Origin: a virus
Taxonomy: Duplodnaviria; Caudoviricetes
Virus record (IMG/VR): IMGVR_UViG_3300028805_000055
Span: 89,680 to 153,679 of that record
DNA: 64,000 nt
Direction: 5' to 3' (one strand)
Of the stretch, positions 3,766 to 63,958 are shown one piece after another. Each line of letters opens with the position of its first letter. Positions within the stretch are counted from its first letter, which is position 1. Position numbers and translations under genes: made by a program. The notes below the pieces were generated by a model. That model searched no databases and had not been told where the DNA came from. It worked only from the letters and a program-made list of their open reading frames with translations.

Positions 3766-5577
3766 TTAATATGTATTTCTCTTTTTTAAATACCCTATTG
3801 CAGCACTCCAGCCATCATCAAATGTAGGCTCGCTACTATGATATTCAATTTTGTCAAGAGCATCATTATAAGCATCCTTTTTCGCTTGAGCAAGCTCTTC
3901 ATCAGTAATATTGGTTTGAGGCTGAATACGTTCTTTGAGCCAATTAATTAATTTATCCGCATTTCGCCCATCACCTCTCATTGTATGAATCATAGCTTCA
4001 ATATCAGAAAAATTGTATTTATCTTCTTCACTCCATTCTTTACTTGGTACAAGTTCTAAGAGAATGTTTGCTTGCTTTTTTATTGTATTTGTATCATTTG
4101 GGTCTAATCCTGCATATTGGCCAAAGAAAGAGCCACCTATGTACATCATTGCATTTTCAAAGTCAGTTAATTCGCCTGTATTTTCTTGCTTCCACTCTTG
4201 CTTTGGCTGTACCAGACCTTTGAGGGATTCGAGCCAATCAGAAAATTCCTTTCTTGAATTACAATATGGAGTAGAATAAATTAAATTATGTATTCCTCTA
4301 TACATTCTTTCATCCTCTTCACTCCATTCTTGCTTTGGTTGTGGCTGTACTCTGTCTTTGAGCCAATTAATATCTTTATCATATTCTTTTTTGCAAGGAT
4401 ATTGTTCCGAACAATATTCTATTGAAGAAAGAATTGAGTTGTACCTTCTTATATCCTCGTCATTCAAAGCATGGTTCTGCTCATCCATAGCGGACTTTTG
4501 TTCAATCTTCTTCAATTCTTTCTTCTCAGCATCCCACTCATATCCTGCTTCTTTCATTTTCTGAAATAAGAGGTCACGCTGTTCTTTGGTGGCTGGATAA
4601 GGCTCTTTATATGTAAAATAATTACCGATAGCACATTCAGTAAAGCGTAATCCATCATGAGTTTTGTAGATTCCACAATATGCACAAACTCTACCTCTTA
4701 AATCAAGTTTCCCATTATATATAAAAATCTTATCTTTATCTTCAGCTGCAAGCACATCACCAGCCTTTGCATCTGCAATACTCCAAAGATGATAGTTGTT
4801 CTCGATGGCAGTATGTGCTATTGTATGGTGATACCCTAAAATATCAACAACTTTATAATCAAGAGGGCTGGGTTTAGCAACTTTAATAATATTTCTTCTT
4901 TCATTGTGAACAAGCCAATCTCCAACTTTTGGTTCAACCTTATCAGTAGACTTCTGCTCAATCTTCCTCAACTCTTTTTTCTCAAAGTCAAAGATATATC
5001 CAGCATCAGCCATTGCTTTCATCAGAGTATCGCGCTGTTCTTTGGTGGCAGGATGCAACAGTGGTACGTCGTTTGTTTTTCCCCAGTAAAAATCTTTTTC
5101 TTGTATTTTAAATTTTCCACTATCAGCAACACAATGATAATCAACTACATCTTCATACTTTTTATTTCCTATCTTTCTAAACAATATTACACTAGCATCA
5201 TCTGCAAGCACATCGCCATCCTTTGCATCTTGGATTGTCCAAAGTCTTGCATCATTTTCCAACGAATAATGCGTACAAGAATACTCTTTACCTTCATTTG
5301 TCTTATAGGCATAAGTATTATCTAATACTTTCATTATTTGAAATATAGTGCCATCTTCATTATCTATGCACCAGTCGCCAACATTGAACTTTATCCTCTC
5401 GTCATCTGACTCTACAAGTTCGGGAAAAAGTTTTGCATACATGCCTCTTATGCCATCTTTTGTAAGATGATTGCAGATATAGTCATCAGCCAAGCAATCA
5501 AGTGCTAATTTTGCGCAATCCAAAGCCTCGTCATATCTTTGGGCTTTTTCTTCTATTGTAAGTTCTTTCATATGCAT
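3766..5577 (-). CDS. repeat-containing hypothetical protein
   Basis: two ~150-aa internal repeats and three WLK..VQP..EW repeats. Confidence 0.85.
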   Translation of the reverse strand: MHMKELTIEEKAQRYDEALDCAKLALDCLADDYICNHLTKDGIRGMYAKLFPELVESDDERIKFNVGDWCIDNEDGTIFQIMKVLDNTYAYKTNEGKEYSCTHYSLENDARLWTIQDAKDGDVLADDASVILFRKIGNKKYEDVVDYHCVADSGKFKIQEKDFYWGKTNDVPLLHPATKEQRDTLMKAMADAGYIFDFEKKELRKIEQKSTDKVEPKVGDWLVHNERRNIIKVAKPSPLDYKVVDILGYHHTIAHTAIENNYHLWSIADAKAGDVLAAEDKDKIFIYNGKLDLRGRVCAYCGIYKTHDGLRFTECAIGNYFTYKEPYPATKEQRDLLFQKMKEAGYEWDAEKKELKKIEQKSAMDEQNHALNDEDIRRYNSILSSIEYCSEQYPCKKEYDKDINWLKDRVQPQPKQEWSEEDERMYRGIHNLIYSTPYCNSRKEFSDWLESLKGLVQPKQEWKQENTGELTDFENAMMYIGGSFFGQYAGLDPNDTNTIKKQANILLELVPSKEWSEEDKYNFSDIEAMIHTMRGDGRNADKLINWLKERIQPQTNITDEELAQAKKDAYNDALDKIEYHSSEPTFDDGWSAAIGYLKKRNTY

Positions 5578-5831: not shown

Positions 5832-6191
5832 TTACTCTATCGGTAATTGTCTTTGAATATTATACAGGGTGTCGTAGAAATATGACTTATTATCACTTAC
5901 AATATCACACCATTCCAGATACTCGTCATATAGGATGCTGGTAGCACCAAGGAAATCCTCTGGGTCTGAGGGACGCATCCATGCACCCTCATAGCTGGAG
6001 GTACTGCATATACCAGCCTTGTAGATATTCCATTTGCCTTTCTTCTTCATCCATTTCATGAACAAAGACCTTGTTACGGCAATCTGGTAGCTATCGCTGT
6101 TTACCTTTCTGTTTTTTGGCAGCTTCATGAGATTTTCCAAGTTCTTCAACTCTCTTTCGGAAATCCCCAATTCCTTCAACATCTTCTCCAT
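5832..6191 (-). CDS. hypothetical protein (F..FLK..G.W family)
   Basis: 119-aa ORF. Confidence 0.7.
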   Translation of the reverse strand: MEKMLKELGISERELKNLENLMKLPKNRKVNSDSYQIAVTRSLFMKWMKKKGKWNIYKAGICSTSSYEGAWMRPSDPEDFLGATSILYDEYLEWCDIVSDNKSYFYDTLYNIQRQLPIE

Positions 6192-10838: not shown

Positions 10839-11014
10839 TCCTTATTATTTTTTAGTCTGAACTCATAGTCTAGAATCATACTATCGTTTCTTGCTATCTC
10901 ATTGAGTATCTTATCCTTATCAGCCTTTGGAGCATCGGATAGTTTCTCCCTAAGAACCATGTTGGCGTGTTCAAGTTTCTTGACCGCCTCTGTCAATACG
11001 CCCTTTGTTGCCAT
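10835..11014 (-). CDS. small hypothetical protein (59 aa)
   Basis: MATKGVLTEAVKK..., read manually; ATGA overlap. Confidence 0.65.
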   Translation of the reverse strand: MATKGVLTEAVKKLEHANMVLREKLSDAPKADKDKILNEIARNDSMILDYEFRLKNNKE

Positions 11015-17414: not shown

Positions 17415-17539
17415 AATATTTTTTAAATTAAAACGTCATCGTCTCCTTTACATTTTGTCCATGCCCAGGCAAACAGGCAGGAAAAGGCAAATACTATTAC
17501 CAACTGAATTAATTTCTCCTCCATAACACTATCTATTTG

Positions 17540-17622
17540 AGACACGGGTGAGATTCGAACTCACGTACCTTTCGGTCAAAGCTTTTGCAGAGCCAGGCGA
17601 TTGACCACTCCGCCACCGTGTC
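17540..17622 (-). tRNA. tRNA-Cys(GCA), long variable arm
   Basis: GACACGG/CCGTGTC acceptor, U73, loop CTGCAAA, V-arm ACC-GAAA-GGT, GTGAG-TTCGAAT-CTCAC. Confidence 0.85.
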
Positions 17623-24683: not shown

Positions 24684-24698
24684 TCAGCCCCCTATTTG
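24672..24698. terminator. hairpin spanning two convergent stop codons
   Basis: aaatagggg/cccctattt. Confidence 0.6.
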
Positions 24699-25916
24699 TT
24701 TAAGAAGATATTCACATTTTTCTTTATTACCAAGAGTTTTACCTTTGTCGTTTGAAAGTTTAACACAGTCATGCCACTCACGAAGTTCGGTGATTCGCAT
24801 TCCAACGAGTTTAATGACGATATTAGAATATGGGAACTTCTCCCCAGTTTCAGAATTGGTCACGTCAGCACAAAGGTGCGTTCCAATTCCATAGGAATCC
24901 TTCATACGCCCATTAAGCCACTCATGAAGTTCAATTGCCTTGTCAATGGTAAGAGCATTAGAGTAGACGATAGATTTTGTTGCTGGGTCAATGCCAAGCG
25001 ACTGATACTTTTCAATCATCTTTTCAGTCTCTTCTCTCTCGTCACCGCTATCAATGCGGATACCATCGAACATCTTAGCCATCTTCTTGGAGAAATTAGA
25101 TAAGAATACCTTAGAGCCGAAACAATCTGGAAGGAAAATACCAAGGTCTCCATCGTAAACGTCAGACCACTTCTTCATCACTTGATAGTTACACTCAAAA
25201 ATACCACTTACACATTCCTCAAAAGAACAAATCTGATGAGACATAGTTCCAATTGGAACAAGACCAAATTCTTTAGCAAACCAAACATTAGATGTACCAA
25301 CAATTTTTCCAGGATAGTCTTTTTCTTCTCCGTATTTTTTTGCTTCGGCTAATGCTTTCACCACATCATAGTGGTTTTGGAAATCAAACCTTCTTCTAGT
25401 TCCCATGTCACTAAGCAAAAGTCCATTCCTTAATGCTTTAATGCTTTTTTCCAATGTTTTTTTATATTCATTGTCCCTGTTAACCTTCTCAATATCGCCA
25501 TTGAGAATATGCATCAATTCAGAAATGGTAGAAAGAATTGGCATTTCCCACATGATGGTGGAATACCATTTACCTTCAATCATAATTGATAAATAGCCAC
25601 TTTGGTCTTGCAAGATATGTACATCAGATGGATTAAATCTGAAACCACGAAGGAAATTGTAATACCATTCTGGCAAGAAATAAACCTTTTTCTTCATGAA
25701 CTCAATTTCTTCTTCTGTGATAACAACATCCTTCATGGCGTTAATTTGTTCTTGGAGTAATTTACCAAACCCTTCTGGATAACGAGTATGGTTGCGGTCA
25801 AAGAATGAATACCTTACTTCCGCACGTGGATACGTCTGTAAGATGTAATACTGACAAGTAAATGTATAAAGGTCGTTGTCAGTAAAATGATTAATAATTC
25901 TTCTTATTTCTTTCAT
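24684..25916 (-). CDS. pncB: nicotinate phosphoribosyltransferase
   Basis: DNDLYTFT, DMGTRRR, GTSNV, GTMSH, RIDSGD, GIGT, KLSNDKGK. Confidence 0.95.
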   Translation of the reverse strand: MKEIRRIINHFTDNDLYTFTCQYYILQTYPRAEVRYSFFDRNHTRYPEGFGKLLQEQINAMKDVVITEEEIEFMKKKVYFLPEWYYNFLRGFRFNPSDVHILQDQSGYLSIMIEGKWYSTIMWEMPILSTISELMHILNGDIEKVNRDNEYKKTLEKSIKALRNGLLLSDMGTRRRFDFQNHYDVVKALAEAKKYGEEKDYPGKIVGTSNVWFAKEFGLVPIGTMSHQICSFEECVSGIFECNYQVMKKWSDVYDGDLGIFLPDCFGSKVFLSNFSKKMAKMFDGIRIDSGDEREETEKMIEKYQSLGIDPATKSIVYSNALTIDKAIELHEWLNGRMKDSYGIGTHLCADVTNSETGEKFPYSNIVIKLVGMRITELREWHDCVKLSNDKGKTLGNKEKCEYLLKQIGG

Positions 25917-29345: not shown

Positions 29346-30755
29346 TTACACAGTCAGAGTTCTCAGCTTAGCCTCTACGACCTCGAAACACTCATCCTTT
29401 GACATATTAGGATTCTCGATATAAGCCTCCTTAACTGCCTCCAGGAGTATACCTACGTTAGGACCTTTCTTAATCTTGAACTCGGTCATGATGTCGTTTC
29501 CGTCGATAGGGAGCTTAAGGTTTACCAGTTTGTCAACCTCGTCCAGCTCTTCAATTCTCTTTAAGACATCAAGCACCTGGGTCTTCTTCTTGTTGAAGAC
29601 TTTATGCACGTTGTTGGCATGCATCAAGTCCATAGTCACTGCAAGGTTGTCACCACAAGAGTTTATCAGCTTTCTGATTTTCTTGTCTGGTGGCAGGAAT
29701 CCATCAGTATAGGTAGAGAACCACTCATGGTGTCTGATAGCCACACACACAGACTTGATGACATCGTTAGGGAGCTTCATTTTTTTAAGGTCAGACTCAG
29801 CAACCTCAGCACTAAACTGGTTGGGTGATACAGTCCTGTCGTTGGCTGTAGCTATCCTACCAACATCGTGAAACAATGCAGCCAATCTGTGCTCCTCATA
29901 AGGTTCTACAGCGTCCAGCACTTCCATTGTATGGTCAAACGTTGTAATAACAGGGTTCTTACACTCGAATGCATGACGCATATCACTGATGTCTGGCATA
30001 ATGATATCCAAGAGGCCACAGTAGAACATCTTACGAACACCGACACTTGCATTGGCTGAGCAGATGATTTTCAGAACTTCATCCGTGATTCTCTCCTGTG
30101 ATACAATCTTAATTCTGTTGGCGTTCTTAACCATACCAAGCCATGTATCCTTTTCGATTCCCCATCCATATCGACAAGAGAATCTAATGACTCTGAGGAT
30201 TCTCAGTGGGTCATCACAGAAGGTAATATCTGGGTCGGCAGGAGTCCTTATAATCTGGTTGGTAATGTCGTATAAGCCAGTTCCGTTGTAGTCGTAAATC
30301 TTACCGTCTGATATGTTGTAGTACAGCGAGTTGATGGTAAGGTCACGTCTCTTGGCATCCTCCTGGATAGTACCGTAGCACGTCTCTGGATTGTGACTGT
30401 CCTTGTGGTATTGCTCCTTTCTGGTCTGCACACACTCCAGCTCCATACCCTCACACTCTGGGTCATTATAGAACTGTACCTTTGCAGTGCCGTAGGTCTC
30501 GAATACAACAGGGTTAGAACCAGACTTATAGGAATCATCCTTTATGGCTACAAAGTTAGCAAAGCTAAGACCACCATTCTTCTCTTCAACAACAATGTCG
30601 ATATCCTTTACAGGCTGTCCTAGTATCAAGTCACGGACACAACCACCAACATAATACACCTTACCCTCGAAGTAGTTGCCTTTAATCATTTCTTCCAACT
30701 TCTTCGTCACTGCAATTATCTTCTTATCAGCGTTTTTAAACAGTATCTCGTTCAT
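29346..30755 (-). CDS. cca: CCA tRNA nucleotidyltransferase (HD domain)
   Basis: VGGCVRD, DIDI, RRDLTIN, DDPLRILR, ERI, HD. Confidence 0.92.
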   Translation of the reverse strand: MNEILFKNADKKIIAVTKKLEEMIKGNYFEGKVYYVGGCVRDLILGQPVKDIDIVVEEKNGGLSFANFVAIKDDSYKSGSNPVVFETYGTAKVQFYNDPECEGMELECVQTRKEQYHKDSHNPETCYGTIQEDAKRRDLTINSLYYNISDGKIYDYNGTGLYDITNQIIRTPADPDITFCDDPLRILRVIRFSCRYGWGIEKDTWLGMVKNANRIKIVSQERITDEVLKIICSANASVGVRKMFYCGLLDIIMPDISDMRHAFECKNPVITTFDHTMEVLDAVEPYEEHRLAALFHDVGRIATANDRTVSPNQFSAEVAESDLKKMKLPNDVIKSVCVAIRHHEWFSTYTDGFLPPDKKIRKLINSCGDNLAVTMDLMHANNVHKVFNKKKTQVLDVLKRIEELDEVDKLVNLKLPIDGNDIMTEFKIKKGPNVGILLEAVKEAYIENPNMSKDECFEVVEAKLRTLTV

Positions 30756-30772
30756 TCGAAAATCATTTTTGG

Positions 30773-30806
30773 TGCAAAGATATAAAAAAAATCTGAGACT
30801 ACCAAG
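30773..30806 (-). promoter_or_regulatory. promoter with overlapping hairpin
   Basis: CTTG..TATCTTTGCA; ATCTGGGATT/AGTCTCAGAT. Confidence 0.75.
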
Positions 30807-30834
30807 TAACAATCCCAGATTTAATATTATTTAA

Positions 30835-46273: not shown

Positions 46274-46277
46274 ACTG

Positions 46278-46362
46278 TAGCGTAAGCTGGATTCGAACCA
46301 GCGGCAGTGTTTCCACTAACGACTTATGAGACCGCCCCAATTGGCCACTCTGGCATTACGCT
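46278..46362 (-). tRNA. tRNA(CAT), long variable arm
   Basis: AGCGTAA/TTACGCT, A73, CTCATAA, V-arm TAGTG-GAAA-CACTG. Confidence 0.85.
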
Positions 46363-49447: not shown

Positions 49448-49448
49448 G

Positions 49449-49537
49449 TGGCTGGGGCGGGACTCAAACCCGCAACTATCTTGCGATAGACCTGCTTAGG
49501 AGGCAGGGACGGTCATTCGATTACGTTTTACCCAGTC
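49449..49537 (-). tRNA. tRNA-Arg(CCT), long variable arm
   Basis: CCTGC-CTCCTAA-GCAGG, V-arm CTATC-GCAA-GATAG, GCGGG-TTTGAGT-CCCGC. Confidence 0.8.
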
Positions 49538-49573
49538 AAATATTTACAATAAATATTGTGCTATTTCTAAATG

Positions 49574-52012: not shown

Positions 52013-52039
52013 AATTAATAATGTTTATATTTGCCGTTG

Positions 52040-52125
52040 TGAGCGTAGTGGGATTCGAACCCACGTAGCCTTATCGCCATAATAGTTTTAGAGACTATCC
52101 CAATCGACCTCTCTGGCATACGCTC
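52040..52125 (-). tRNA. amber suppressor tRNA(CTA), long variable region
   Basis: GAGCGTA/TACGCTC, A73, ATAGT-CTCTAAA-ACTAT, GTGGG-TTCGAAT-CCCAC. Confidence 0.88.
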
Positions 52126-52128
52126 TTG

Positions 52129-52824
52129 TTAATCTAGAACTTGATTCTTAGATAATGGTAGGCCATAATGCTTAAACCATTTTCTAATTGCCACATCTGA
52201 CACACCATACTTTTTACCAACCTTCCTAAAGCTTTTCAGTTCTTTAAATGACTGAATAAACTCATCTTTCGATGGATGAGAATTTCTCCAGATTTCTTCT
52301 TTTAAATTTTTGTTGTATTCTTTTTTTGGAGCTTTAACAACATTTTTTTTCCTATATTTTGTTTTCTCACAAGTTCTATTCTTGGAGGTAAAATTATCTG
52401 TTTGAGAATGACAATTTGGGCATAAAATTTGTAAGTTTTCTAACCTATTATCATTATTAATACCATTAATATGATGTACTTGTAAAGAAATTGGCTTTCC
52501 TTGCCACTCTGTTATGCCACATATCTCGCATTTATTTTCTTTTAAGCCTTCATTAAGTAATCTTTTTTTTAATTTTTGATTTGTATATGTACTATTTTCT
52601 ACTAGTACACTTTCTATTGGCATTTTTTTACGATACTCTCCAATTTTTTCACTTTGATATGTGAATTTTAATTCTATGTTGTATTTTTTAGATAAATCTC
52701 TAATTTGTTTGTAATCATAACTATTAGGATTTACAATACCAATTTTGTGGCATAAATCAAGCATGTTAACAGAAGAACCACTTGATAATTCTATAAGTTT
52801 GTCTAAAAGTAATTCATTTTTCAT
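52129..52824 (-). CDS. HNH endonuclease with C-terminal HTH
   Basis: CEIC, HHING..DN..ENL..LCPNCH; AT-rich. Confidence 0.92.
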   Translation of the reverse strand: MKNELLLDKLIELSSGSSVNMLDLCHKIGIVNPNSYDYKQIRDLSKKYNIELKFTYQSEKIGEYRKKMPIESVLVENSTYTNQKLKKRLLNEGLKENKCEICGITEWQGKPISLQVHHINGINNDNRLENLQILCPNCHSQTDNFTSKNRTCEKTKYRKKNVVKAPKKEYNKNLKEEIWRNSHPSKDEFIQSFKELKSFRKVGKKYGVSDVAIRKWFKHYGLPLSKNQVLD

Positions 52825-55400: not shown

Positions 55401-55521
55401 CAGGGACAGAAGGATTTGAACCTCCGTCGTTTATCCTTTTCCAAACATCAACACTTCCCGAAGTCCGTGTATATACGAATGGAATCGTAACAAATTATTC
55501 TAACCGCTAAACTATATCCCT
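55401..55521 (-). tRNA. tRNA with ~50-nt insertion in anticodon loop (Arg-ACG?)
   Basis: AGGGATA/TGTCCCT, normal D and T arms, long hairpin insert. Confidence 0.7.
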
Positions 55522-55535
55522 ATAAAAATACAAAA

Positions 55536-56399
55536 GACTGAGAACTTTGTCTTATTGTGGATGCCTTTTCACAACGGTTGGACGTTGCTGTTCACACGCC
55601 ACCTTACGATGGACGTAGACACCATGCACAATAGTTTTGCGAAAACTACTAAACACTTACTGGTTTAAACCTTTCGGTACAGAATCATAACATTCATTTC
55701 ACCACCAAGCTCTTGCGGATTCACTGGATGCCTCCAGCTAACTCAGATGACTACTTTTACTCGTTCATCGGATTCCTTGCGAGTCCCCGATGCCTCCATA
55801 TTGCAGGAGAGATAAGTGCATTTTATCTGCCCAGTGTCGCACACTTTCGCTTTTAATATTTATTTTAAAAGACGACAGGATTCGAACCTGTAACACTCGG
55901 ATTAACAATCTGATGCTCTACCGTTGAGCTACACTTCCACAACTAACGGAAGACGAGGTGCGACCCTTAGCATCCGTGCCTTTTGAGCACAGCCCACTAA
56001 ATCGCCTTCCTATGCCAAGACCACCACAGTCCTGTAGCACCGATACACACTCTCAGCCTTACGGTTCTTAACGCTTATAGACTACGCATTTCACGTTAAG
56101 ACGATTGTGTATCTGAATCCAACCCGCCAACTGGTGACTATTGAATCGGATTCAACAGAGTAATCTATTGTATCGCTACTCAACCAAAGCTGTTAACCTT
56201 GGTAGCACGTCGCACTGCATTTACCGACAGAACTCCGTGCCGTACCCTGTTCTTTTCAGTGAAATGCCCTGGTTTTCCAGAACATCTGAGTCGGGTTAGT
56301 TGCCAATATCCGTCTCATTTATCCCATCACTGGATTATCCTTATGGCTACGAAAGCTAGCCGTTCTTCCTCGTTTTCAGCCGAAGCCTACAACGTGAGA
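55536..56399 (-). ncRNA. large structured RNA, GOLLD-like, with embedded degenerate tRNA-Asn
   Basis: ~860 nt without a credible ORF, many GNRA hairpins, within tRNA cluster. Confidence 0.5.
55867..55938 (-). pseudogene. degenerate tRNA-Asn(GTT)
   Basis: D, AC (TTGTTAA) and T arms present; acceptor mostly G-U or mismatched. Confidence 0.65.
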
Positions 56400-56404
56400 A
56401 GTAG

Positions 56405-56519
56405 TTGGTAAGAGCAGATTTGCACTGCTGAAGCCGCCTAAGCGACACATCAAGCACGAACTTGATGCCCATTTGTCTACATCTAGGTGTTACCCTAGTT
56501 CTCCTCTGGTACTTACCAA
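56405..56519 (-). ncRNA. tRNA-shaped array RNA copy A
   Basis: shared covarying fold with copies B-E. Confidence 0.85.
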
Positions 56520-56724
56520 AAGGTGATTTTTTACTTTGTTCACCACAAAATATAGTAAGTAGTATTGTAAAGGCTGATTCATTTTTCAGAACCAATTTAA
56601 TGGTAAAGGACATCCGCTTTATTTCATACGGTTGTATGTTTGTCGCAACCTCACTTTCCTCGCCAACCTTTACTGCCGATTGCACCTGAGCATTTATACT
56701 ACTTTAACGCTTAACTGATACTCG

Positions 56725-56836
56725 TTGGAAGAGGTGGATTTGCACACACCGAAGCTCCGAAGAGCACACTAAGCACGAACTTAGTGCCCATTTGTCTACA
56801 TCAGCCTTGCGACTGTTCTCCTCTGGTATCTTCCAA
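56725..56836 (-). ncRNA. tRNA-shaped array RNA copy B
   Basis: shared covarying fold. Confidence 0.85.
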
Positions 56837-56837
56837 A

Positions 56838-56951
56838 TGGTTGGTAGAGGTGGATTTGCGCCACCGAAGCTCCTAAGAGCACATTACTCACGAAAGTAAT
56901 GCCGATTTGTCTACATCTGGATTACTCCAGTTCTCCTCTCGTATCTACCAA
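56838..56951 (-). ncRNA. tRNA-shaped array RNA copy C (encoded CCA)
   Basis: TGGTAGA/TCTACCA-A-CCA. Confidence 0.88.
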
Positions 56952-56955
56952 AGAG

Positions 56956-57066
56956 TTGAGAGAGTGGGATTTGCACACCACGAAGTCACCTAAGTGACAC
57001 AACATTTACCATGTTGCCCATTTGTCTACATCAGCCTTGCGACTGTTCTCCTCTGGTATCTCTCAA
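56956..57066 (-). ncRNA. tRNA-shaped array RNA copy D
   Basis: shared covarying fold. Confidence 0.85.
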
Positions 57067-57070
57067 AGAG

Positions 57071-57183
57071 TTGGAAGAGCTAGATTTGCACTAGCGAAGC
57101 CCCATAAGAGGCACATCAAGCACGAACTTGATGCCGATTTGTCTACATCAGCCTTGCGACTGTTCTCCTCTCGTATCTTCCAA
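57071..57183 (-). ncRNA. tRNA-shaped array RNA copy E
   Basis: shared covarying fold. Confidence 0.85.
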
Positions 57184-57184
57184 A

Positions 57185-57261
57185 TGGTAGCGGCACACAG
57201 GAGTCGCACCTGGTGTTTTTTGCTTATGAGACAAACGTGTAAACTGTTTCACTCTGCCGCT
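57185..57261 (-). tRNA. tRNA-Met(CAT), atypical T-loop, encoded CCA
   Basis: AGCGGCA/TGCCGCT-A-CCA, CTCATAA, TGCGACT. Confidence 0.8.
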
Positions 57262-57264
57262 ATA

Positions 57265-57753
57265 TTAACTGAATATTTTTTTCTTGTCTTCATCAGAGAG
57301 TTGACCACTATCAAACTCCCAATGGTGATTAGGACATAATGCAACTAGATTATTTATATCATTTATTTCTGAGACTAAACTATCATTACTGAATTCAGAT
57401 ACACCCTTTATGTGAGCAATCTCAATATGCTTATTATATCCGCATATTGCACATTCTCTAGGTTTATTAGACCTTTTGAAAATAGAATCAGCTAATTTTC
57501 TAATTGCTGTTCTAGCACTCTGCCAGTTTTTCCTACACCCAAACAATTCACCCTTGGTCATATTAAGTATCGGAGAGTTGTATTCAAGATTCAGTTCAAC
57601 ACCTAATGCTTTACATCTTTCCAATATTTTGTTATGAATTTTGAATGCCCTGCTAGAGTATCCCAAAGCTTCATTAACACCCTTCCAAGTTGTGTTGGCT
57701 TTTATTATTCTACAGAAATCTTCATCAGATGTTCTATATAATTTATCTACCAA
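57265..57753 (-). CDS. HNH endonuclease
   Basis: CAIC, AHIK, N.INNL..LCPNHH; TTG start only. Confidence 0.85.
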   Translation of the reverse strand: MVDKLYRTSDEDFCRIIKANTTWKGVNEALGYSSRAFKIHNKILERCKALGVELNLEYNSPILNMTKGELFGCRKNWQSARTAIRKLADSIFKRSNKPRECAICGYNKHIEIAHIKGVSEFSNDSLVSEINDINNLVALCPNHHWEFDSGQLSDEDKKKIFS

Positions 57754-58176: not shown

Positions 58177-58207
58177 TTTTTCAGAAGAAATTTTTCATCT
58201 TTTTTTG

Positions 58208-58581
58208 TGGAGCTGGTGGAAGTCGAATCCACGTCACAATTACCATCCCATAAGAGATTATACAAGCTTCTAGAGAATTGGTAAGTGGCTTGCGCCACCT
58301 TTCCTCTCTGCCACCTCATTTTTAAGAAACGAGGAAAACTGGGGGATTGACCAGAGGTCTATCCCAGCATGACCACCACTTGGTTTCTTGACACCAAGAA
58401 ACAAGTCACCAGGATGTTCTGTTCCTAAGAGCCTGGTCTCTCGGCTTCGCTTACGCTGCTACAGCGTATGCATAAGCAGGAGAATCTACGTTCTCGCCAT
58501 TTATGTTTTTTCGCTATTTCTAGTGTATGCCCACTGCTTGTCTCTTACCAGACGCATAACGTTCTATACCGTTTCAGCCCC
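58208..58581 (-). ncRNA. ssrA: tmRNA
   Basis: GGGGCTG/CAGCTCC-A, T-arm, ATAAAT resume context, tag GENVDSPAYAYAVAA*. Confidence 0.93.
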
Positions 58582-58973: not shown

Positions 58974-59531
58974 TTATCGGAATGCACCAATGAACTGCTT
59001 TAGTATGTCCTTACGCTTAAGGACGCTTTCTGGAACGAAATCCTTAATCCATTCAGAGTTATCACTAATTCCTTCTCTCACCTTTGTTGCCGATATGTTA
59101 TCAGCGATAGTGCCTCTGGCATTCAACTTGAAGGAAACGAAGTTCCTTGTGATGAATGGTGGAAACCACAACATGATAATCTCGAACCCATCAGAATAGT
59201 AGATGGTAAACTCTGGAGACCTGGTGATACCAACAATCTTACTGTAGAGATAGAATCCCCAATCGTGAGAGTTGTCAGATTCATCCGTAAGGTCATCAAG
59301 TGGCTCGATGCGCACCCTATTAGCATCCTCTCCAAACGTCTGGTGTACAGCCTCAACTGCCATGTCCAGCCTTAGGTTAATCGGAATTGGATTCCTCTTA
59401 TTGAGTTTATCAGCAGAACCAACGAGAACAAGAACTGTGTCGTTCTCATTGAGTGCCTGGCGAATCAACTCCAGATGCCCGTTGTGAATGGGCTGCAAAC
59501 GTGCTATAATAACACCTACCTTTTCTGTCAT
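58974..59531 (-). CDS. NMN adenylyltransferase (NadM-like)
   Basis: ARLQPIHNGH, VGSA..RNP, ISATKVR. Confidence 0.85.
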   Translation of the reverse strand: MTEKVGVIIARLQPIHNGHLELIRQALNENDTVLVLVGSADKLNKRNPIPINLRLDMAVEAVHQTFGEDANRVRIEPLDDLTDESDNSHDWGFYLYSKIVGITRSPEFTIYYSDGFEIIMLWFPPFITRNFVSFKLNARGTIADNISATKVREGISDNSEWIKDFVPESVLKRKDILKQFIGAFR

Positions 59532-59554
59532 AATTATATACGTTTTCAAAAAAC

Positions 59555-60881: not shown

Positions 60882-61334
60882 TTAACATACTAGGTCTTTC
60901 ACTAAGCTTGAGTCACCATGACTCGTCTGTAGGATGCTCCTAATTGCCGTACTACTTATATAAGATAAGGTATTAGGCGTTGGTATCACCAGGGTTGGCA
61001 TCTTTCCCAAGTTCCAGTTTATGTCAGCCTGAGCAACTTCATCTGTGAAGTCTGTACCATTCCTAGCACCCTTGATGATAAACTTAGCACCAATCTCTTG
61101 TGCCTTCTTGAATACCAACCCATCAGTGCTGATAACCTTTACACGAGGCTCATCCTTGAAGATTGCCTCAATCATCCTCACTCGTGCTACAGGCTCGAAA
61201 TAACCCTTCTTTAGATGGTTTATAGCAACGCATACGTAGACTTCATCGAAGACCTGTAATGCAGCATTCACAACGAACCTATGCCCTTTATGGAATGGGT
61301 CAAAGCTTCCTGGAAATAATGCTATATTCTTCAT
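60882..61334 (-). CDS. coaD: pantetheine-phosphate adenylyltransferase
   Basis: FPGSFDPFHKGH, N..KK..F...R, KG.R...DF..E, ISS. Confidence 0.9.
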   Translation of the reverse strand: MKNIALFPGSFDPFHKGHRFVVNAALQVFDEVYVCVAINHLKKGYFEPVARVRMIEAIFKDEPRVKVISTDGLVFKKAQEIGAKFIIKGARNGTDFTDEVAQADINWNLGKMPTLVIPTPNTLSYISSTAIRSILQTSHGDSSLVKDLVC

Positions 61335-61543: not shown

Positions 61544-61561
61544 AACACTTATTTAATTAAG

Positions 61562-61647
61562 CTCGTCGGGTGCGATTCGAACACACGGTAGCGCAAAGCT
61601 ACACTAGTTTTGGAGACTAGCGGGTTAAACCACTCCCCCACCGACGA
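61562..61647 (-). tRNA. tRNA-Trp(CCA), long variable arm
   Basis: TCGTCGG/CCGACGA, G73, CTAGT-CTCCAAA-ACTAG, V-arm GTAGC/GCTAC. Confidence 0.85.
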
Positions 61648-62989: not shown

Positions 62990-63024
62990 TTTTTCTCAAT
63001 CTTTTTTTCATTTTTTAATATTTG

Positions 63025-63108
63025 AGCTAGAGACAGGATTCGAACCTGCGTGGGATTTTTACCTTTGGATTACGAAACCAACCTATTCAACCACTCTAGC
63101 ACTCTAGC
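63025..63108 (-). tRNA. tRNA-Thr(CGT), long variable region
   Basis: GCTAGAG/CTCTAGC, U73, TTCGTAA loop, 15-nt V region. Confidence 0.85.
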
Positions 63109-63649: not shown

Positions 63650-63656
63650 ATTCTTG

Positions 63657-63738
63657 AGCTGGGGACAGGATTCGAACCTGCGTTGTCTTTCGAACATGAT
63701 TACAAATCAAGTGCCTTCAACCTCTCAGCCACCCCAGC
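63657..63738 (-). tRNA. tRNA-Thr(TGT), long variable region
   Basis: GCTGGGG/CCCCAGC, U73, TTTGTAA loop, 13-nt V region. Confidence 0.85.
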
Positions 63739-63875: not shown

Positions 63876-63876
63876 G

Positions 63877-63958
63877 TGCATCGTGTAGGACTCGAACCCA
63901 CGTCGTGATTACTCACACAGATTAAGAGTCTGTTGCATAACCTCTCTGCCAACGATGC
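63877..63958 (-). tRNA. tRNA-Lys(CTT), long variable arm
   Basis: GCATCGT/ACGATGC, A73, ACAGA-CTCTTAA-TCTGT, V-arm GTGA-GTAA-TCAC. Confidence 0.87.

Follow-up and report, generated by a model that had tools for sequence, protein, structure and literature searches.

The window analyzed here, 64,000 nucleotides of viral DNA, carries five units of 112-116 nt on its minus strand at 56404-57183, each of which folds into a five-arm cloverleaf (Table 1). Five minus-strand units, four of them closely spaced, had been described in the initial annotation, and this layout was borne out: units A to D are separated by gaps of 3 nt between unit limits (about 4-5 nt when counted from the discriminator), and 204 nt lie between units D and E. 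The statement that copy C encodes both the discriminator and CCA likewise agreed with the sequence, which reads A-CCA. The acceptor type of unit E recurs at the same array position in four related loci. The array is part of a same-strand tRNA island, and a genuine tmRNA lies separately. Weak tRNA(CAU) genes, orthologous to the atypical one at the head of the array, were present directly 5' of units in six related loci and in the complete genome G001. The pattern of the conserved module within the units occurred five times in the window and was not seen in 100 shuffles.

The spacer between units D and E contains an RNA element, termed X, that is about 95% conserved in three related loci. A part of 85 nt matched unannotated DNA in 29 Flavobacterium psychrophilum phages, and comparison with these matches revealed one 6-bp helix that is fully compensated. 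A match of spacer X to any Rfam family was not found. Directly 5' of unit E, a TTG box is followed by a short leader hairpin. A leader of the form TTG(C/T)GGTGGACAA...AAAAACCACCTT preceded 17 of the 18 units examined, solo copies included, suggesting that box and hairpin may represent a promoter and a 5' leader. A scan for sigma-70 promoters and terminators yielded none above shuffled expectation.

Table 1. Positions of the tRNA-shaped units and of associated features in the window
Feature	Position	Strand	Description	Basis
Phage CCA-adding enzyme	29346-30812	-	Domains PolyA_pol, PolyA_pol_RNAbd and tRNA_NucTran2_2	Pfam (PolyA_pol, 1.5e-25)
Divergent GOLLD-like RNA	55535-56403	-	5' domain 56011-56403, clade-conserved; core 55535-56010	Core matches Rfam
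tRNA-Asn	55867-55938		Nested in linker of GOLLD-like RNA	
Unit E	56404-56519	-	Subtype I; acceptor UGGUAAG; final unit ahead of GOLLD-like RNA	Family model R1, 126.6 bits
TTG box and leader hairpin	56520-56549	-	Adjoins unit E on its 5' side; 5-bp hairpin (GGTGA...TCACC, then UU)	Conserved
Spacer RNA element X	56550-56723	-	Between units D and E	Conserved
Unit D	56724-56836	-	Subtype I; acceptor UGGAAGA; one bulged U in T-stem	R1, 118.1 bits
Unit C	56840-56951	-	Subtype I; acceptor UGGUAGA; T-loop CGCAAAU; A73-CCA encoded	R1, 125.1 bits; sequence
Unit B	56955-57066	-	Subtype II; acceptor UGAGAGA; 5-bp arm, 7-nt loop U-G-GUA-A-A (Tyr anticodon, G33)	R1, 112.1 bits; arm classification
Unit A	57070-57183	-	Subtype I; acceptor UGGAAGA; D-stem CGA/UCG; sealed arm, UUCGUG loop	R1, 133.3 bits; minimum-free-energy fold
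Atypical tRNA(CAU)	57189-57261	-	Heads the array; T-loop UGCGACU (G55); D-loop without GG	Rfam RF00005, 32.5 bits
tmRNA	58205-58581		Genuine; separate from the array	

Structure and covariation of the unit family

Minimum-free-energy folding of single units returned the described cloverleaf for units A to D and a partial one for unit E. Compensatory change had been claimed for every helix. Within the five window copies alone, 18 of 37 predicted pairs were compensated; 26 of 34 pairs were compensated among 42 sequences, and 30 of 34 changed on both sides among 52 distinct sequences. In the latter set, 98.7% of cells were paired, as compared with 33-43% when the partners were slid, and none of 500 shuffles matched the observed covariation score. 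The acceptor helix (99.5% of cells paired, six of eight pairs compensated), the T-stem (96.5%, five of five) and the variable arm (100%, five of five) all contributed. As judged from these alignments, the units form a real, selected family of tRNA-shaped RNAs. The cloverleaf supported by sequence and covariation comprises a 7-bp acceptor, U8-A9, a 3-bp D-stem, a hairpin in the variable arm and a 5-bp T-stem; an eighth acceptor pair, U-1:A73, is possible. The first acceptor position is T in 47 of 47 sequences and the first pair U1:A72 in all members. The T-loop reads UGCAAAU in 43 of 48 members, and all 48 end with the 3' tail AC.

The D-loop of the units spans 33-55 nt including a hairpin and carries an insert of 22-45 nt in its 5' part. 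The module had originally been thought to stand in place of the D-loop; instead, it is inserted within a retained class-II D-loop, nucleotides of which remain on both flanks (GAG... ...AAA). The two strands described as invariant, GAGGAGAA and ATGTAGACAAA, proved to be highly conserved but not invariant, as the variants AAGGAGAA, GAGGAGAAA, ATGTGGACAAA, AGGTAGACAAA, GTGTAGACAAA and ATGTAGACAAC exist. The insert hairpin is flanked by GAGGAGAA and AUGUAGAC, and 39 of the 48 members cap it with a GNRA loop. A scan anchored on acceptor, T-loop and tail only recovered the module in every match; thus, its conservation is not circular. Several readings of the module were rejected. GAGGAG...AUG-UAG could be taken for a ribosome-binding site followed by adjoining start and stop codons, but the variants AGGUAG and AUGUGG are incompatible with this. 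The consensus motifs of kink-turns, loop E and hammerheads were not matched upon inspection. Finally, removal of the insert as a D-loop intron would leave the anticodon closed, and to our knowledge no bacterial mechanism removes a D-loop intron.

Two subtypes were distinguished by the anticodon arm. Subtype I (41 of 48 distinct members) has a 7-bp stem, which covaries, and a 6-nt loop that conforms to UNNGUG in 41 of 41 cases. In subtype II (7 of 48, unit B included), a 5-bp stem carries a 7-nt loop with G34-U35-A36-A37 in all seven and G or C at position 33. U33 is absent throughout the family. In six of the seven subtype II members, position 32 can pair with position 38, which would close the loop to 5 nt. 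The term anticodon-less, as applied earlier to all five units, does not strictly hold for unit B, which keeps a canonical GUA arm. Across the family the arm displays G-U-R but would be unsuited to reading codons. A role of subtype II as substitute for an absent tRNA-Tyr found no support; a further tRNA-like gene with GUA is present in the records that contain subtype II.

Relation to tRNAs and phage-restricted distribution

None of the five units was called by ARAGORN. Comparison of the units with Rfam gave no family at the gathering score or at E<=10, and the tRNA model RF00005 (detection threshold 29 bits) did not match any unit even at E<=10. Over 56300-57300, Rfam reported at E<=10 just tRNA and a chance-level twister (E = 4.3). 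A description of the unit family was found neither in the literature nor in Rfam, in keeping with the initial annotation, which had recognized no family for it. The structured RNA family is well supported and absent from Rfam and from searchable papers.

A search of phages, which the initial annotation had proposed, uncovered at least 48 distinct homologs on roughly 30 viral contigs, a number of which are 240-416 kb long. No family member was detected in one genome each of 185,579 prokaryote species. The five units are genes of a phage-restricted, tRNA-derived RNA family that is non-decoding. Tandem multi-copy arrays recur in related phages. Host inference via an M42 peptidase returned distant planctomycete matches only.

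Genuine tRNAs aligned with the family model from end to end, with scores of 15-38 bits. With strict filters the model found nothing in the E. coli chromosome; with filters off, E. coli tRNA-Tyr scored 37.9 bits, ahead of tRNA-Ser (27.9), tRNA-Leu (24.7) and tRNA-Arg (16.8). In the complete relative G001, a long-arm tRNA(CAU) scored 28.5 bits, tRNA-Ser 27.6 bits and the phage's own tRNA-Tyr 21.2 bits. Overall, the nearest real tRNAs were long-arm tRNA(CAU) genes that have the UGCAAAU T-loop in common with the units. The retention of GUA-A37 in all seven subtype II members points to a possible tRNA-Tyr-type ancestor, although the tRNA-Tyr of G001 scores below its tRNA(CAU) and tRNA-Ser. An origin from tRNA-Glu was discarded, as phage tRNA-Glu genes miss E<=0.01 with the family model.

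In overall architecture the units resemble class-II tRNAs, especially tRNA-Tyr(GUA). They share the 7-bp acceptor, the 5-bp T-stem, U8, the 3-bp D-stem, the GAG...AAA frame of the D-loop, a variable-arm hairpin followed by CUUCG, and A73-C. The likeness to tRNA-Tyr extends to the GUA-A37 of subtype II and to the rank of E. coli tRNA-Tyr as the top canonical tRNA tested. The units differ by the D-loop insert, the lack of G18-G19, the presence of G55 in the T-loop, U1:A72, the missing U33 and the mostly 7-bp stem with 6-nt loop, and their scores fall short of the thresholds that Rfam and ARAGORN set for tRNAs. Non-decoding tRNA-like RNAs include the tRNA-like domain of tmRNA, YrlA, MALAT1 mascRNA, plant-mitochondrial t-elements and the small stable RNAs of phage T4 (species 1/2), the last located in the phage tRNA cluster. 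In these RNAs the acceptor/T half serves processing or protein recognition, not codon reading. Rfam models of tmRNA and YrlA did not match the units. The units stand out by a complete five-arm class-II cloverleaf with a new conserved module added to it. A complete tRNA fold can evidently be put to new use while its decoding end is sealed and its elbow carries a newly acquired conserved module.

The adjacent GOLLD-like RNA

Unit E continues without a gap into a divergent GOLLD-like RNA, and the same layout was found in six of six assessable arrays. The RNA matched the entire RF02032 model, positions 1-416 of 416, at 72.4 bits (E = 2e-18). This score is below the gathering score of 150, as are those of its relatives (69-86 bits), and the match passes the published criterion of E<1e-5 (10.1101/2024.12.08.627333). 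Mismatches occurred in the strands of the long-range pseudoknot of the RF02032 consensus, where posterior probabilities are low. The divergent GOLLD was seen with the E-value threshold only; a scan of 12 loci at the gathering threshold missed it. In the window, in five related loci and in G001, a full-length GOLLD match (E 1e-16 to 1e-23) begins 350-630 nt 3' of the final unit. The interval in between is a clade-conserved 5' domain that aligned with three related loci, and a 17-nt marker from this domain was found in 10 viral loci, every one on a contig with units. By its position, the array is the predicted leader of the GOLLD-like RNA.

GOLLD has been reported near tRNA islands, often 3' of tRNA-Met, with a linker that can hold a tRNA, and it assembles as a 14-mer into a hollow cage in which tRNAs might be enclosed (10.1101/2024.12.08.627333). 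The order in the window is similar: tRNA(CAU), the units, and then the GOLLD-like RNA with its nested tRNA-Asn. The units themselves lie outside the RF02032 model, and none of the published GOLLD descriptions found mentions anticodon-less tRNA-like modules with such a D-loop insert. The function of GOLLD has been unknown since 2009, and the fixed place of the units ahead of a divergent GOLLD offers a concrete, testable handle on it. In G001, solo copies with their own leader lie at a distance of about 100 kb from GOLLD, and five solo loci lack GOLLD within about 5 kb. Solo copies at such a distance imply that the unit RNA can act apart from GOLLD.

Possible maturation and function of the units

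The units end in A73-C and the genuine tRNAs of the phage in N73-C. The phage CCA-adding enzyme is likely the maturation factor for both the CCA-less tRNAs and the units. The position in a tRNA island, the tRNA-like tail and this enzyme together make tRNA-type processing of the units plausible. They would be transcribed together with the tRNA island, released by RNase P and RNase Z, and completed at their 3' ends by the CCA-adding enzyme. The mature RNA is expected to adopt a tRNA-like L remodelled at both ends. At one end the anticodon would be closed, either by the 7-bp stem with its 6-nt UNNGUG loop or by a 5-6-bp stem with GUA and no U33; at the elbow, the D-loop insert would present a usually GNRA-capped hairpin.

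We tentatively favor a role of the units as high-dose, trans-acting tRNA mimics, a reading that appears possible rather than probable. Tandem genes would provide a high dose, an argument with which the tandem copies are in line, and the mimics would occupy a factor that recognizes tRNA-Tyr/His-type tRNAs (GUN-anticodon, long-arm) without ever entering translation. Such a factor might be, for instance, a host nuclease that targets tRNAs or an enzyme that binds them. Counted in favor of mimicry were the covariation, the score of E. coli tRNA-Tyr, the GUA-A37 of subtype II, the conserved UNNGUG, the common tRNA tail, the CCA-adding enzyme, the tandem arrays, the phage-only distribution and the solo copies. 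Against it stand the low score of the G001 tRNA-Tyr, the closeness of long-arm tRNA(CAU) genes to the units, and U1:A72 in place of the G1:C72 of bacterial tRNA-Tyr. Moreover, a decoy for an anticodon enzyme leaves the most conserved part, the elbow insert, unexplained, as well as the GNRA capping and the unit ahead of every GOLLD-like RNA of the clade. If the units were decoys for tRNA-Tyr/His-type factors, they would constitute a new RNA-based counter-defence in large Bacteroidota-type phages.

Some phage tRNAs with altered anticodon loops evade host nucleases, and at least subtype II, hence unit B, might be a working tRNA-Tyr whose non-U33 loop escapes an anticodon nuclease. The canonical 5-bp/7-nt arm with GUA-A37 in all seven members fits this proposal. 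We consider it highly improbable: no member has U33, the 32-38 pair can form in six of seven, a large insert sits at the elbow contacted by the ribosome, the T-loop has G55, another GUA-bearing tRNA-like gene is at hand in subtype II records, and four of the five window units belong to subtype I. Charging might also occur outside decoding, most plausibly with tyrosine by a host or phage TyrRS. The charged units could then be non-ribosomal aminoacyl donors or could regulate or sequester the synthetase, with the closed anticodon and altered elbow keeping them off the ribosome. The main identity elements of bacterial tRNA-Tyr for TyrRS are A73, the long variable arm and the anticodon-loop G-U, all of which have counterparts in the units; C74 is encoded, a CCA-adding enzyme is present, and G001 has a TyrRS near its tRNA island (TIGR00234, 331 bits versus a cut-off of 113.8). 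Such a function is nonetheless distinctly improbable. U1:A72 replaces G1:C72, the loop geometry is altered, the TyrRS of G001 already has a normal tRNA-Tyr, an aminoacyl-tRNA-dependent transferase was not recognized beside the units, and the 153-kb fragment containing the window lacks TyrRS. An improbable role as processing punctuation would make the units mainly RNase P/RNase Z handles that define the ends of neighboring RNAs (GOLLD 5' end, spacer X, tRNAs), analogous to plant mitochondrial t-elements and MALAT1 mascRNA, with an excised product that has no role. The acceptor and T half read by both enzymes is intact, unit E adjoins the GOLLD-like 5' domain and is preceded by the leader hairpin, and the 3-nt packing in a same-strand RNA island without terminators above chance would suit such handles. 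They would require neither the conserved 33-nt D-loop module nor the conserved UNNGUG loop, four tandem copies flanking only one another would be unneeded, and the island offers ordinary tRNAs for the same purpose.

Because the array leads the GOLLD-like RNA, a GOLLD-linked role is a serious rival to the host-defence decoy, although we still regard it as somewhat unlikely. The units may be dedicated partners of the adjacent RNA, either as attached or released modules that dock to the multimeric particle via the GNRA elbow hairpin and the conserved strands, or as cargo or assembly cofactor. This is suggested by the full-length GOLLD match 3' of the last unit with the clade 5' domain in between, by the restriction of the 5'-domain marker to unit contigs, by the GNRA loop of the insert, and by the published association of GOLLD with tRNAs and a cage that might hold them (10.1101/2024.12.08.627333). 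On the other side, the linkage was seen in one related phage clade only and may be inherited synteny, the solo copies lie apart from GOLLD, and GOLLD-bearing bacteria lack the unit family. A search for conserved complements between the unit loops and the GOLLD-like RNA yielded just one, UGUCUAC in GOLLD to GUAGACA of the module, and it is part of paired helices; as a single event with a chance of about 0.2-0.3, it was rejected as evidence of pairing. That the GNRA hairpin of the elbow module docks the tRNA-shaped units onto or inside a multimeric GOLLD particle is, in its specific form, doubtful. If it did, the association of GOLLD with tRNAs would reflect a tRNA-handling function that is exaggerated and dedicated in this clade.

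A conserved family of tRNA-shaped RNAs

The initial annotation had placed five tRNA-shaped units, of no family it recognized, on the minus strand at 56405-57183. Five units (A-E, see table) were indeed located, spanning 56404-57183 on that strand. The pattern GAGGAGAA-N10-22-ATGTAGACAAA matched five times in the window and not once in 100 shuffles, and it had no further match in the rest of the 153,679-bp virus record. When each sequence was folded singly, units A-D adopted a five-arm cloverleaf, and unit E most of the same fold. The closing helix of 8 bp can also be counted as 7 bp with U-1:A73 added; positions 8-9 are U-A, and within the 3-bp D-stem lie GAGGAGAA, a hairpin, and AUGUAGACAAA. 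Next come a long "anticodon" helix, the hairpin of the variable arm with UUC after it, the T-stem (5 bp, loop UGCAAAU), and an A-C tail. Unit C encodes A-CCA, as had been noticed. Across the window, ARAGORN called 15 genes for tRNA or tmRNA, none of them a unit. The Rfam comparison proposed with the annotation gave no match for the units, whether at gathering score or with E <= 10, in keeping with the absence of a recognized family.

A viral contig collection was scanned with the exact pattern of the module, the conserved D-loop insert. Forty loci were obtained, ~28 of which held full-length homologs (37 distinct sequences); the remaining loci were chance matches within coding sequence. In a structure test with 42 sequences, 97.9% of cells were paired, and both sides had changed in 26 of 34 pairs. 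A covariance model of the family (R1), which the annotation had also recommended, scored the window units at 112-133 bits and recovered extra members with a module unlike the search pattern. For 52 distinct rows, 98.7% of cells were paired and 30 of 34 pairs were compensated. The observed score was reached by none of 500 shuffles, and slid partners gave 33-43% pairing. Many of the 52 rows are paralogs or stem from related phages, and not all covariation events are independent; despite this kinship, the number of pair types per position leaves little doubt that the tRNA-shaped structure is selected.

Because the first search had fixed the module, a second scan was anchored on acceptor, T-loop, and tail only. 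The module was present in 20 of 20 loci, with one new locus carrying a GAGGAGAAA...GGUGUAGACAAA variant; the insert is thus conserved, but its strands are not invariant as had been stated. The family was not found in 185,579 prokaryote species (one genome each) or, by blastn, among 50,697 deposited phage genomes. It is phage-restricted and under selection. The units match none of the catalogued tRNA-like RNAs. We class them as non-decoding tRNA-derived RNAs, a known kind; a literature search found no paper describing this family.

The "anticodon" arm, core, and ancestry

The arm occurs in two forms. Units A, C, D, and E belong to subtype I, which has 41 distinct members, a 7-bp stem, and a 6-nt loop that reads UUCGUG in 39 members and UAUGUG and UUUGUG in one each; the loop is therefore UNNGUG throughout, while the stem covaries. 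A non-decoding TTCGTG loop had been annotated for four of the five units. Subtype II (seven distinct members, including unit B) has an exactly canonical 5-bp stem and 7-nt loop, N32-(G/C)33-G34-U35-A36-A37-R38. All seven contain the tyrosine anticodon and A37, none contains U33, and positions 32 and 38 could pair in six. The decoding loop is thus closed or crippled. The description as anticodon-less does not strictly apply to unit B, which retains GUA-A37 in a canonical arm. Because of these loop features, the arm is unfit for normal decoding, yet it is no arbitrary cap and puts G-U-R on display.

Genuine tRNAs aligned to R1 from end to end, with scores of 15-38 bits, and the scaffold of the units is therefore that of a tRNA. 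The position-by-position anatomy was deduced from the alignment, with positions numbered as is standard for tRNAs. Conserved nucleotides in single-stranded stretches would correspond to a class-II tRNA core, comprising U8, A9, and A73 as well as U54, C56, and A58 in the T-loop. The D-loop would open with G-A-G (positions 13-15) and close with A-A-A (~position 21), the conserved G.U pair topping the anticodon stem would be the equivalent of 26-44, and the C directly 5' of the T-stem is a candidate partner for G15. The insert, up to 45 nt long in some members, probably occupies the 5' part of the D-loop and would consist of GAGAA, a 5-6-bp hairpin, and A. The following U-G-U-A-G-A-C resembles GGUAGAC of class-II D-loops (exactly GGUAGAC in one member). 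Thus, the module, which does lie inside the D-stem, expands the D-loop rather than standing in its place as annotated, and class-II flanks (GAG/AAA, GGUAGAC-like) are kept. Its hairpin would project from the elbow of the tRNA shape. Of 48 distinct members, 39 have a GNRA loop on this hairpin, and such loops usually make tertiary contacts; UUCG-type loops prevail in the variable arm.

Among E. coli tRNAs, R1 scored tRNA-Tyr at 37.9, tRNA-Ser at 27.9, tRNA-Leu at 24.7, and tRNA-Arg at 16.8 bits. The units share the CCnGAG...AAAnGG D-arm, the GaCUUCG junction, and A73-C with E. coli tRNA-Tyr. In the complete related phage genome G001, the genuine tRNA-Tyr reached 21.2 bits, whereas a long-arm tRNA(CAU) reached 28.5 and tRNA-Ser 27.6. 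The best real-tRNA matches overall were long-variable-arm tRNA(CAU) genes, which have the T-loop UGCAAAU of the units and the D-loop AAGUAGUCAAA; tRNA-Glu genes gave no score, and an origin from tRNA-Glu is not supported for the family. In our reading, the family would descend from class-II-type tRNAs of the phage. The likeliest single candidate for the ancestor is a tRNA-Tyr-like RNA, chiefly in view of the GUA-A37 relic.

Features of the window and of related viral contig loci (L numbers)
Feature	Position	Strand	Remark
HNH endonuclease gene	57265-57753	-	first in minus-strand order; ends 4 nt before tRNA(CAU)
Atypical, weak tRNA(CAU)	57189-57261	-	second in order, heads array before units A-D
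Unit A	57070-57183	-	subtype I
Unit B	56955-57066	-	subtype II
Unit C	56840-56951	-	subtype I
Unit D	56724-56836	-	subtype I
Conserved non-coding spacer (~170 nt), TTG box, 5-bp leader hairpin	56520-56723	-	between units D and E
Unit E	56404-56519	-	subtype I
121-nt tRNA	55401-55521	-	Rfam 39.9 bits; large (~48-nt) insertion after anticodon stem region
Long-arm tRNAs: Cys, Met/CAU, Arg-CCU, amber CUA, Trp, Thr x2, Lys	17539-17622, 46277-46362, 49448-49538, 52039-52125, 61561-61647, 63024-63108, 63656-63738, 63876-63958	-	
Nicotinate phosphoribosyltransferase gene	24684-25916	-	
Two cytidylyltransferase-like genes	58974-59549, 60882-61334	-	possibly NMN adenylyltransferase-type
Long-variable-arm tRNA(CAU) genes	L012:901-984, L010:2778-2861, L016:2618-2700	-	R1 29-35 bits
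Second tRNA-like element	L001 ~5430-5523, L002 ~10890-10980, L031 ~6060-6153	-	
Non-canonical tRNA-Tyr-like gene	L066:1499-1590	-	missed by ARAGORN
Non-canonical tRNA-Tyr-like gene	L065:1430-1528	+	missed by ARAGORN

The array and the adjoining GOLLD-like RNA

All elements of the array region lie on one strand. The tRNA(CAU) at its head has the T-loop UGCGACU (G at position 55) and lacks G18-G19. A weak tRNA(CAU) in this place is conserved in related phages, echoing the published note of GOLLD RNA downstream of tRNA-Met. The element between units D and E is also present in L024, L007, and L016. In 29 Flavobacterium psychrophilum phages (e.g. FpV4, KT876724 82784-82868), unannotated DNA matches 85 nt of this element. 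One 6-bp helix of the element shows full compensation (GCAATC/GGTTGC vs CTGTGG/CCACAG), and no Rfam family matched it.

Downstream of unit E, ~870 nt without credible ORFs precede the 121-nt tRNA. With an E-value threshold, Rfam matched the whole GOLLD model (RF02032) at 55535-56010 with E = 2e-18 and 72.4 bits, below the gathering score of 150; this RNA is GOLLD-like by E-value, not by the curated score. A tRNA-Asn is located in its A-rich linker. The 390 nt from unit E to the match are conserved in related loci, and they fit the variable 5' domain described for GOLLD (10.1101/2024.12.08.627333). GOLLD-like matches of 69-75 bits follow the last unit in L003, L006, L010, L014, and L016, and in G001 (295 kb) two units are followed by one of 85.7 bits. 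A 17-nt marker of the GOLLD-like 5' domain was found at 10 viral loci, all on contigs bearing units. Solo copies, standing outside arrays, have the same leader hairpin as unit E. Both in the window and at 8 of 12 loci, the units are no more than a few kb away from a tmRNA gene.

tRNA matches of 121-135 nt also follow the GOLLD-like RNA in L006, L010, L016, L014, and G001. UGUCUAC, the complement of GUAGACA in the module, occurs at 55617-55623 (minus strand) and at the corresponding site of six related GOLLD-like RNAs, 87 nt from every 3' end and inside predicted helices. The pair guagac/gucuac also occurs within the canonical GOLLD pseudoknot consensus. The complementarity is probably a coincidence.

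Possible roles and other tRNA-like elements

The units may be expected to mature through RNase P, RNase Z, and CCA addition because tail and context are the same as in genuine tRNAs; a CCA-adding enzyme is encoded in the window. Tentatively, we favor the idea that the units are trans-acting tRNA mimics occupying a tRNA-recognizing factor, which might be a nuclease or enzyme of the host with specificity for long-arm tRNAs that have a GUN anticodon. Such a decoy would best explain the conserved G-U-R loop, the dosage from multiple gene copies, and the solo copies. Somewhat less probably, the units are a dedicated partner of GOLLD, which would best account for the elbow module with its GNRA tip and for the fixed position. 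The two need not be linked in cis, since a third unit copy in G001 is ~100 kb distant and five solo loci have no GOLLD within ~5 kb. A role as processing handles is unlikely, and one as aminoacyl carrier or ligand of TyrRS, which is encoded in G001, is less likely again. That the units are a decoding tRNA-Tyr variant is very improbable; they do not pass the tests that define a decoding tRNA.

Eight phage tRNAs of 83-91 nt in the window combine hairpin variable arms and Ser/Tyr-like D-arms with anticodons normal for short-arm tRNAs. Immediately downstream of solo units is a second tRNA-like element of another kind, in which the acceptor TGATAGG or TGGTAAG is followed by TA, a body of irregular shape, a GGTTCGATTCC T-arm, and a tail ending in ...CAAC. 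The tRNA-Tyr-like gene of L066 and L065 is in synteny with the normal G001 tRNA-Tyr. Its anticodon arm is perfect (GCAGA-CUGUAAA-UCUGC), but its D region is aberrant and its variable region long and irregular. The tRNA island of the window also contains scattered HNH endonuclease genes, one at 52129-52824 (minus strand) and one heading the array region. The nicotinate phosphoribosyltransferase and cytidylyltransferase-like genes suggest a phage NAD salvage module.
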